IMG/VR virus record: IMGVR_UViG_3300012952_000027
Coordinates: 1 to 55,345 of that record
Reading direction: 5' to 3' (one strand)
Length of the DNA stretch: 55,345 nucleotides
Source: a virus
Taxonomy: Duplodnaviria; Caudoviricetes
Position 1 is the first letter of the stretch. The number at the start of each line of letters is the position of its first letter. The notes beneath the pieces were generated by a model. That model did not search any database. It was given only the letters and a program-made list of their open reading frames with translations, and was not told where the DNA came from. Positions 21,104-22,039 of this stretch are shown piece after piece. A program made the position numbers and the translations under genes.

Positions 21104-22039
21104 TTATGGGTTAATGCCGCTCAAGATATGAGCAGAATTAAAATTTAGCCTGATTTGAACTTTTTCAATAGTAGTCAATTTTACAATCTTTTTAAATATC
21201 TGACTTGACAAATAGTAGATAAAATTCAGATCATGCTCTAACTTGTCTAGGACATCTGTAGATCTCATGACGATGTGTAAATCTAAAGTGTTGTCCCTGC
21301 ACATAGCGTGGATTAAAGAGATGCAAGAGTCGTTTGTGTAGATAAATCTTCTAGAAGATGAAGTTTGAGATAGATTATACTCATTTTTACCTGCAATCTC
21401 ATCATCTATTTTTTTAAGCATTCCGTGGAATATTTCTCCATAATATTCTCTCTCGCTTGGAAGGTTGAGAATATCACTAGATGCACCTTTGAACTGATTG
21501 TCTACAAGGAGTGTGAGCTGCATGCCTGTGCATTCGTTTCTGGGGCTGGCTGAAGAAAGTTTGCAAATCATGTTTGAGATGCCTTCAATTTGCATCTCTG
21601 ATCTGGAATTGACAATCGATATCAATCTGTCTCTAGATCTTTCTGGAGAGGCGAGATCCTTGTCAGAAAGTAAATAAACGTTTGGTAGATTTATAAGAAA
21701 GCCTGCGTCTTCAGCAAAGGCATCGTAAACTCTTTTTAAAGAAGCTTCGTCATGAATCTCATCACCCCTCCTTTGAAATCTCTCTCTGATAATTTCCCAC
21801 TCAGGAATCATAAGAATAAACAGATTATTTAAATTAAAAACCTCTCTTTTAAAATTGTAGTCAATATCGCCGAGATCACGATTGTACATCTTTCCAAATA
21901 TTCTTCTAGATATCTGTGACCTATCCATTAGGTGCCACTGATAGCCAGTTAAACTATGTACGTTTCTTATGAGTGTGGTTTTTCCTGAACAATCAGGACC
22001 TTCAACAAAGATATTGTGCGTAGCTAGTTCTATCATCAA
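21104..22039 (-). CDS. dNMP (thymidylate) kinase fused to a compact thymidylate-synthase-like domain
   Basis: N-term EGPDCSGKTT...DRS...RGDE; C-term SRR...SCISLIH...MRSTD.......D...NSAHI. Confidence 0.75.
   Translation of the reverse strand: MMIELATHNIFVEGPDCSGKTTLIRNVHSLTGYQWHLMDRSQISRRIFGKMYNRDLGDIDYNFKREVFNLNNLFILMIPEWEIIRERFQRRGDEIHDEASLKRVYDAFAEDAGFLINLPNVYLLSDKDLASPERSRDRLISIVNSRSEMQIEGISNMICKLSSASPRNECTGMQLTLLVDNQFKGASSDILNLPSEREYYGEIFHGMLKKIDDEIAGKNEYNLSQTSSSRRFIYTNDSCISLIHAMCRDNTLDLHIVMRSTDVLDKLEHDLNFIYYLSSQIFKKIVKLTTIEKVQIRLNFNSAHILSGINP

Follow-up and report, generated by a model that had tools for sequence, protein, structure and literature searches.

We wondered what a phage might gain by fusing a nucleotide kinase to a thymidylate synthase (TS)-like domain. 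The question was raised by an open reading frame (ORF) directly behind the dnaE gene of IMG/VR record IMGVR_UViG_3300012952_000027, a virus of the class Caudoviricetes whose 55,345-bp sequence was analysed as a whole and is called the window below. An initial annotation, made from the letters alone, had described the product as a deoxynucleoside monophosphate (dNMP) kinase joined to a miniature TS-like domain carrying the Asp that specifies cytosine, and had proposed that it modifies deoxycytidine monophosphate (dCMP) at C5 in concert with its own kinase. To our knowledge, nearly every pyrimidine hypermodification known from phage DNA begins with a TS homolog, and the branch of these enzymes that uses flavin for hydroxylation was recognised only in 2025-26. 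With a probability of roughly 55%, we read the protein as a homodimeric dCMP C5-modifying enzyme that is coupled to its own kinase. Pyrimidine modifiers of the TS superfamily that work with a nucleotide kinase are of a known kind; the fusion of the two appears to be new.

The ORF encodes a genuine protein of two domains that is conserved among relatives. Its start codon is TTG 22039 or ATG 22036, and its stop codon occupies 21104-21106; the database copy of the protein, P0002, has 310 residues. AlphaFold2 (AF2) modelled it from 52 homologs with pLDDT 95.3 and pTM 0.90. Near-identical DNA is present in marine and estuary metagenomes of other studies, and 18 of the 22 listed variant sites inside the gene (four metagenome runs) are synonymous, which indicates purifying selection. 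Database searches returned 227 fusion homologs (clusters at 90% identity, E ≤ 1e-3), nearly all of about 300 aa; some clusters bear Tara-style names, and the family comes from marine samples of many studies. When 1.84 billion proteins were searched with a profile of the C-terminal domain, 398 representatives reached E ≤ 1e-3 and 165 of these E ≤ 1e-10; among the best 150, none exceeds 337 aa. Conservation and synteny were counted over 79 fusions, namely 78 viral loci and the window. In 50,697 phage records tblastn found no match to the fusion; none was found in cultured phages, whose nearest DnaE proteins share no more than 31% identity, and a fold search of BFVD brought up nothing that combines these two domains (best TMq 0.37). 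Neither a kinase-TS fusion nor a TS domain of about 160 aa was found described in the open full-text literature, subscription-only literature being outside the search. Given its low CheckV completeness (19%), the window is a fragment of a jumbo phage. Related contigs measure 202-284 kb, one of them rated 100% complete, and the lineage is one of uncultured marine jumbo phages of about 200-290 kb that replicate with DnaE.

The C-terminal half does have a TS fold, although in miniature, as had been suspected from its motifs. Its length had been put at about 150 aa with an end at SAHIL; the small size holds, but the domain measures about 162 aa and runs on for five residues after SAHIL. It is the smallest TS-like domain that we met in this analysis. 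Foldseek searches with the AF2 model gave TS-family matches with E-values from 9e-7 to 1e-4 and a probability of 1.00 (229 matches at E ≤ 0.001). The top PDB matches were the dCMP hydroxylase AfhB of phage HY126 (9iqu, E 9.2e-7), AfhB with dCMP and FAD (9iqc, E 5.4e-6) and the T4 dCMP hydroxymethylase (1b5d, E 3.7e-5), followed by many ThyA chains. VIA-align superposed 144-146 residues with Z 11.3-11.4 and a root-mean-square deviation (rmsd) of 3.3-3.5, MilA (5b6e, 146 aligned) and 9iqu (144 aligned) tying as best matches at Z 11.4. Profile-profile alignment of the domain family with TS references reached a probability of 94.4% (E 8.5e-8). Among single sequences, hhalign ranked gp167 of Tenacibaculum phage PTm1 best (96.1%, E 3.6e-9) and aligned T4 gp42 over 151 columns (94.3%, E 1e-7); the probability for E. 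coli ThyA was just 50.6%. Of the TS fold, the model retains the complete five-stranded central sheet together with helices A, B and J.

The nucleotide-handling residues of TS are kept as well (Table 1). The strings on which the initial annotation had relied, MRSTDVLDKLEHD at residues 258-270, DSCIS around Cys239, SRR at 229-231 and SAHIL, are all in the protein, and the motifs that it gave for E. coli ThyA and T4 gp42 proved exact when compared with the database sequences. Within MRSTDVLDKLEHD, R259-S260 correspond to ThyA R166-S167, D262 to D169 and D270 to the N177 position, and E196-x-x-Y199 aligns to E60-x-x-W63 of T4 gp42. The mini-TS thus matches R126/R127, C146, R166, S167 and H207 of ThyA along with its five-stranded sheet and helices A/B/J, and has Asp in place of Asn177; it shares with T4 gp42 the Asp at the base-selecting position, Glu60 and Cys148. 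Nearly all of these residues are fixed across the 79 fusions: D270, R230 and R248 are found in all 79, C239, E196, R259, S260 and H304 in 78, and R231 and E169 in 77. Conservation of Cys and Asp in homologs, on which the earlier proposal had been staked, is thereby borne out, and both residues are also present in 17 of 17 stand-alone relatives described below.

What is missing lies on the folate side, again as anticipated. The Glu58 equivalent and the Arg-Arg (RR) pair are separated by about 32 residues here, whereas E. coli ThyA has about 67. The stretch from helix B to the RR loop, which in ThyA and T4 gp42 spans roughly 65 residues and bears the I-W-x-x-W folate contacts, is for the most part lost. 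The protein ends 7 residues past His304, so that of the folate-binding elements both the I79-W80-W83 segment and the C-terminal tail are absent. Compared with ThyA, the domain lacks W80/W83 and residues 210-264 and, as far as the alignment shows, R21. Because large parts of the surroundings of the TS active site are deleted, the domain might be a non-catalytic nucleotide-binding module that serves the kinase as a specificity or allosteric sensor, steers its choice of (deoxy)cytidylate and performs no C5 chemistry, and the pTM of 0.90, which indicates a rigid kinase-TS arrangement, would suit such a role. Binding alone, however, needs neither the Cys (78/79 fusions, 17/17 stand-alone forms) nor the catalytic Glu (likewise 78/79 and 17/17), and we consider the sensor quite unlikely. 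With its invariant nucleophile, acid-base Glu, phosphate ligands and Asp for reading cytosine, the domain is more likely to catalyse a reaction on a cytosine mononucleotide than merely to bind one.

In TS, the RR pair completes the phosphate site of the partner subunit. A two-copy prediction of the fusion reached ipSAE 0.87, versus 0.01 for the best of three controls; three runs had at least 93% of contacts in common, with a partner pLDDT of at least 90. Of 30 proteins whose structures were solved as pairs, 20 attained this mark; of 23 solved as single chains, one did. The predicted interface is the TS beta-sheet, and R230/R231 contact R259'/S260' of the partner. The model also brings the invariant R248 into contact with the invariant E169' of the partner, which accounts for two otherwise unassigned invariant residues. 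Kinase residues 32-66 likewise lie inside the predicted interface, beside the TS domain. As a separate matter, Glu169 had been considered as a substitute for Arg21 and was rejected: in the hhalign alignment it coincides with Glu35 of T4, and in the dimer model its contact is Arg248'.

ThyA D169 binds the pterin. At the equivalent position 262 the fusions carry Asn (44 of 79), Asp (27, the window among these) or Glu (8), and the residue switches even among close relatives, the window having D262 and its closest relative, L001, Asn. Position 236, the L143 equivalent, is Asp in 44 fusions, Ser in 12, Gly in 7, Asn in 6, Gln in 4, Glu in 3 and His in 3; the window has Asn. The TS homologs of phages RB69, DLP3, RL38J1 and others turn dCMP into 5-hydroxy-dCMP with flavin and O2 (Lee et al., 2026; PMC13326640). 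As described in that paper, these synthases carry N177D and L143E, D169N is proposed as diagnostic, and the legend of its Fig. 6 gives Asp169 as typically conserved outside the hydroxylating branch. The 5-hydroxy-dCMP synthases (AfhB, RB69 gp48, DLP3 gp80 and RL38J1 gp216) resemble the mini-TS in the Asp at the N177 position, a polar or acidic residue at the L143 position and the catalytic Cys. They differ from it in length (217-238 versus about 162 aa), and the mini-TS lacks the segment from helix B to the RR loop and, by the alignment, their Arg21 equivalent. PTm1 gp167 has an RSNN motif and with it the Asn signature, and its chain ends as early as that of the mini-TS; a C-terminal SAH motif with an early stop is common to the mini-TS, PTm1 and Shigella phage JK45.

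Since the parts that hold folate are lost and the nearest relatives are flavin- and O2-dependent 5-hydroxy-dCMP synthases, flavin-type hydroxylation to 5-hydroxy-dCMP would be the single most likely chemistry, an assignment that is tentative and that we place clearly below even odds. The loss on the folate side, the nearest structures, the C-terminal architecture and the Asn signature in the family majority all lean towards a hydroxylase-like, non-folate reaction, which we hold to be more likely than a folate-dependent one. The unusual chemistry that the initial annotation had allowed for thus gains a concrete candidate in the flavin-dependent dCMP hydroxylases, the closest solved relatives. 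The same two steps could also be carried out by a stripped folate-dependent dCMP hydroxymethylase or methylase that obtains its missing elements from the kinase domain or the partner subunit. The alignment to T4 gp42, the Asp kept at the D169 position in 27 of 79 fusions, including the window, and in 15 of 17 stand-alone forms, and the kinase residues beside the TS domain in the predicted interface are all compatible with such an enzyme. T4 gp42, however, retains the folate-side elements, including the IW(xx)W segment that is absent here together with the C-terminal tail; position 262 varies among Asn, Asp and Glu, whereas the cited legend has Asp169 typically conserved outside the hydroxylating branch, and the closest structures are flavin enzymes. 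We therefore regard a folate-dependent mini-TS as unlikely.

The N-terminal half belongs to the P-loop kinases that act on nucleotides or nucleosides. This part of the initial annotation stands; the more specific dNMP type is less certain, as the closest kinases are YorR, deoxyadenosine kinase and the GMP and TMP kinases. A family profile matched YorR of the Bacillus prophage SPbeta in the PDB (2axp, E 3.2e-6), and VIA-align returned YorR (3kb2, Z 13.8, rmsd 2.8, 140 aligned), deoxyadenosine kinase (2jaq, Z 13.3), GMP and TMP kinases (Z 11-12) and the cytidine kinase AbmG (8j5f, Z 11.5). E13, the P-loop residues G14, D16, G19 and K20, the DR pair D39 and R40, and the lid residues R87, G92 and D93 are each present in 79 of 79 fusions. 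Pfam kinase models gave sub-threshold P-loop matches only. The T4 gp1 fold (1dek/1del) was not among the 50 listed VIA entries or the listed Foldseek matches, which does not exclude that fold.

The likeness to YorR leads back to the 5-hydroxycytosine (5hoC) clusters. Table 1 of Lee et al. (2026; PMC13326640) lists, without an assigned role, a 'nucleotide kinase' of YorR/thymidylate kinase (TMPK) fold 1-3 genes from the 5-hydroxy-dCMP synthase in DLP3, RB69 and RL38J1, and the record of phage JK45 is annotated with the same kinase-synthase arrangement. YorR and the cluster kinases RB69p045, DLP3_078 and JK45 gp041 have in common with the fusion the P-loop EGPD-x-x-GK-[ST]-T, a DR motif after strand 2 and an RGDE lid motif; they stand alone without an assigned substrate, whereas the fusion kinase sits N-terminal to a TS-like domain. 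JK45 gp041 aligns with the N-domain of the fusion over 130 columns that include the DR motif (hhalign, 91.9%, E 7e-7). On this homology and that table, the fusion unites two components that are neighbours in the 5hoC clusters: the kinase partner is an adjacent gene there and fused here. The coupling of kinase and TS function proposed earlier is thereby backed, as it is by the split relatives described below. In a very unlikely scenario the kinase would act first, salvaging deoxycytidine and feeding dCMP to the TS-like domain, or the substrate would be the ribonucleotide cytidine monophosphate (CMP), as for MilA, and the product not destined for DNA. The deoxyadenosine and cytidine kinases among the close structures, which also include nucleoside monophosphate kinases, the tie of the CMP hydroxymethylase MilA as best VIA match, and a sugar-nucleotide epimerase gene directly downstream in 56 of 79 loci are in keeping with it. 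Such an order or product is at odds with the homology to the kinase of 5hoC DNA-modification clusters, and also with the invariable place behind dnaE in a deoxynucleoside triphosphate (dNTP)-supply module (thymidine kinase (TK), dCMP deaminase, ThyX and ribonucleotide reductase), which argues for a DNA precursor.

Both halves of the fusion also occur as separate genes. A HMMER profile search over representatives found stand-alone mini-TS proteins of 164-218 aa (e.g. P0238 and P0254) that match the C-domain profile with E-values of 1e-12 to 1e-15 and go undetected by Pfam. In 17 of them the catalytic set E, R, C, S, R, RS, D, H is invariant; at the D169 position, read by eye from the alignment, 15 have Asp, one Asn and one Glu. 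Five viral loci with stand-alone forms (L093-L097) were found and four examined, one 5.8-kb contig being left out. In two of the four (L093 and L097) a TMPK-like kinase of 155-162 aa lies directly upstream and overlaps the mini-TS gene, of 196-215 aa, by 10 nt; in L096 such a kinase is found two genes downstream, and in L094 none is near. BLASTP connects both split halves to the fusions, and hhalign aligns the fusion N-domain with the split kinases over 143 columns (98.3%, E 1.4e-14). A tblastn search of the phage records with P0238 gave no match, and with P0254 only weak matches to ordinary TS homologs of 225-253 aa from Tenacibaculum and Bacteroides phages. A word-based search for shorter, split forms found 2 fragments only, on contigs of 640-730 nt, and a locus scan of a second subset returned 3 loci, at least one of which (L099) is on the same contig as the fusion L061.

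Apart from being unfused, the stand-alone forms differ from the fusion in the company they keep. A second, larger Asp-type TS homolog accompanies them in three of the four loci (Table 1), an NT5C/HAD nucleotidase in all four and dCMP deaminase in three. All four also encode, near the mini-TS, a protein of 298-332 aa with an N-terminal GxGxxG motif (e.g. L097:5735-6730). It has no match in PDB or Pfam, and its AF2 model is too poor for use (pLDDT 38.8); ESM-Atlas clusters of the NAD_binding_8/amine-oxidase type (0.95) make a flavin-oxidoreductase-like protein a lead only, and a scan of five large fusion-lineage genomes, run without a positive control, found it in none. The second TS homolog could make the modified dCMP that a mini-TS sensor would recognise. 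In the five large genomes of the fusion lineage, however, no other TS homolog of the PF00303 type was found at E ≤ 0.1 (control genomes, 10 of 14), which would leave no other maker of modified dCMP there. A separate observation is that ThyX is present in 2 of the 3 loci with the second TS homolog, giving up to three TS-type enzymes per module.

For the modifying enzyme coupled to its own kinase, we envisage the following course. The TS core would bind a cytosine mononucleotide, most likely dCMP, with Asp270 reading N3/N4 of the cytosine, Arg259 and Ser260 together with Arg230'/Arg231' of the partner holding the phosphate and His304 contacting the sugar. Cys239 would attack C6 and so activate C5, Glu196 would act as acid-base relay, and a substituent would be put on C5. 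The fused YorR-type kinase would then phosphorylate the product, or else supply the substrate, and the altered nucleotide would enter the dNTP pool of the DnaE polymerase encoded directly upstream. Computation has given us the fold and its conserved residues, a predicted dimer geometry, the synteny and the split-pair homology; the substrate, the chemistry, the order of the two steps and a modified base in virion DNA we infer. The phages probably produce a cytosine of altered chemistry to build into their DNA. T4 follows the same logic, gp42 modifying dCMP and gp1 then phosphorylating it in a module with dCMP deaminase and TK, and the neighbourhood of the fusion (dnaE, TK, dCMP deaminase, ThyX) parallels gp42, gp1, cd and tk. 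In T4 the genes for gp42 and gp1 are separate and unlinked, whereas here modifier and kinase are fused and the kinase is of the YorR/TMPK type.

Several observations weigh against this reading. Within the domain, the phosphate ligand R21 of ThyA (K28 of T4) falls into an alignment gap of hhalign, and residue 167 is variable (Arg in 17 of 79), and the equivalent of Tyr94 is not reliably aligned (candidate Y221, 59 of 79). PF00303 gives no match to the fusion protein at E ≤ 10, the C-domain has no sequence match in the PDB and whole-protein phmmer gave only chance hits there at E ≥ 0.5, so that the homology of the C-domain rests on profile and fold methods. The dimer score may reflect likeness to solved TS dimers and would then be no independent evidence. 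The D169N signature of the 5-hydroxy-dCMP synthases is lacking in the window copy and present in 44 of 79 family members. In three of four split loci the second TS homolog means that the mini-TS is not the sole candidate cytosine modifier. The clusters of 5-hydroxy-dCMP synthases contain arabinosyl- or glycosyltransferases and sugar activation, which the fusion loci lack, their sole linked sugar gene being the epimerase: the 45 neighbour clusters that recur most widely within 10 kb at the 79 loci include no glycosyltransferase family, and GT1 genes, found in 3 of 5 large related genomes, lie about 100 kb from the fusion. No dCTPase was identified among the neighbours, only MazG-like candidates. 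Asp262, the variability of this site, the lack of a linked glycosyltransferase and the second TS of the split phages make the nature of the product less certain. In an unlikely version of the modifying enzyme, the Cys/Glu/Arg/Asp core alone would make an undescribed cytosine C5 derivative; the kinase would be obligatorily coupled, and a cofactor or co-substrate would sit where kinase and TS domain, or the two subunits, meet. If so, a whole abundant lineage of marine jumbo phages would carry an unrecognised modified cytosine in its DNA, and the orphan 'nucleotide kinase' in the hypermodification clusters of RB69, DLP3 and RL38J1 would be assigned a function.

The family illustrates how far the TS fold can shrink, to about 160 aa. 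As this is below detection by PF00303, modified-cytosine pathways may go unnoticed in metagenomes. The fusion is common in marine samples, fixed beside the replicative polymerase of a jumbo-phage lineage, and it provides Rosetta-stone evidence for joint action of the TS homolog and the YorR-type kinase in 5-hydroxycytosine clusters. A cytosine derivative made by the fusion would bear on how phages in the ocean evade restriction and CRISPR, and on ways of making modified nucleotides with enzymes.

Table 1. Coordinates of the fusion gene, its domains and residues, neighbouring genes in the window, and the second TS homolog of the split loci. Neighbours were counted within 10 kb of the fusion gene.
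Feature	Position	Strand	Evidence
Whole gene, kinase and mini-TS fusion, 311 aa	21104..22039	minus	ORF and translation
P-loop kinase domain, YorR/TMPK/deoxynucleoside kinase-like, residues 1-149	21593..22039	minus	profile versus PDB, VIA, conservation
P-loop GPDCSGKTT, residues 14-22	21974..22000	minus	sequence; G14, D16, G19, K20 invariant
Minimal TS-fold domain, residues 150-311	21107..21592	minus	Foldseek, VIA, hhalign
Glu196 (ThyA Glu58, T4 gp42 Glu60)	21452..21454	minus	hhalign versus T4 gp42
Ser229-Arg230-Arg231 (ThyA R126/R127, phosphate binding across dimer)	21347..21355	minus	hhalign
Cys239 (ThyA nucleophile Cys146), within DSCIS	21323..21325	minus	hhalign
Motif MRSTDVLDKLEHD, residues 258-270	21230..21268	minus	hhalign versus ThyA
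His304 (ThyA His207)	21128..21130	minus	hhalign
DnaE-type DNA polymerase III alpha, directly upstream	22068..25634	minus	Pfam; 79/79 loci
NAD-dependent sugar-nucleotide epimerase/dehydratase, 8 nt downstream	20070..21095	minus	Pfam E 1.4e-52; 56/79 loci
dCMP deaminase	15606..16022	minus	Pfam and PHROG; 68/79 loci
Thymidine kinase (TK)	18033..18605	minus	Pfam E 2.1e-30; 71/79 loci
ThyX flavin-dependent thymidylate synthase	27142..28122	minus	Pfam E 1.8e-16; 32/79 loci
MazG-like NTP pyrophosphohydrolase, candidate dCTPase/dUTPase	29121..29498	minus	PHROG 12184, E 5.9e-18; 23/79 loci
Second TS homolog of split loci, 214-248 aa	L093:4051-4794, L096:6324-6965, L097:3991-4644		PF00303; Asp at N177 position by eye

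The genes around the fusion form a co-directional module (Table 1). The fusion follows dnaE on the same strand in all 79 loci, with 28 nt between the dnaE stop and the fusion start in the window, and Pfam confirms this position as well as the separate ThyX and TK that the initial annotation had named as a possible source of dTMP. The downstream epimerase is TviC/GalE-like, under the NCBIfam cut-offs, and often duplicated (77 copies over the 56 loci). Further neighbours are Fe/Mn superoxide dismutase (SOD)-like proteins (55 of 79 loci), DHH phosphoesterases (46), nucleoside 2-deoxyribosyltransferase-like proteins (36) and cupins (25). The MazG-like neighbours comprise two families, in 23 and 21 of the loci. 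A MazG-like gene at 28124-29065 (minus strand), also a candidate dCTPase/dUTPase, has a C-terminal part resembling HAD/polynucleotide-kinase-phosphatase proteins (PHROGs 415, 1238 and 173).

The SOD-like gene (14553-15260, minus strand; Sod_Fe_C, E 2.3e-18) is unusual for a phage, and any link to O2/flavin chemistry is pure speculation. Sugar-nucleotide enzymes are embedded in the dNTP-supply module with no glycosyltransferase close by, and the small cupin (18602-19024, minus strand) has a faint likeness to mannose-6-phosphate isomerase. The nucleoside 2-deoxyribosyltransferase family also contains dNMP N-glycosidases; by analogy, its member in the window (26199-26648, minus strand; Pfam E 4.4e-13) could clear unwanted nucleotides. 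An IMP dehydrogenase/GMP reductase-family gene without CBS insert (19028-20065, minus strand; Pfam E 6e-96) is present in just 15 of 79 loci. Between dCMP deaminase and the DHH phosphoesterase lies an ORF of 359 aa (16012-17091, minus strand) with no match in Pfam, PHROG or NCBIfam and no counterpart in the 78 related loci. In relatives, full-length DnaJ (15 loci) and DnaK/Hsp70 (7 loci) are encoded a few kb upstream of dnaE (e.g. L011:5236-6321 and L017:2688-4586). Finally, a 642-aa protein (10315-12243, minus strand) contains an internal GapR-like DNA-binding domain (Pfam E 2.2e-5) and is matched by BLASTP at 37 of the 78 related loci; under stricter clustering, it has counterparts in 18 of 79.

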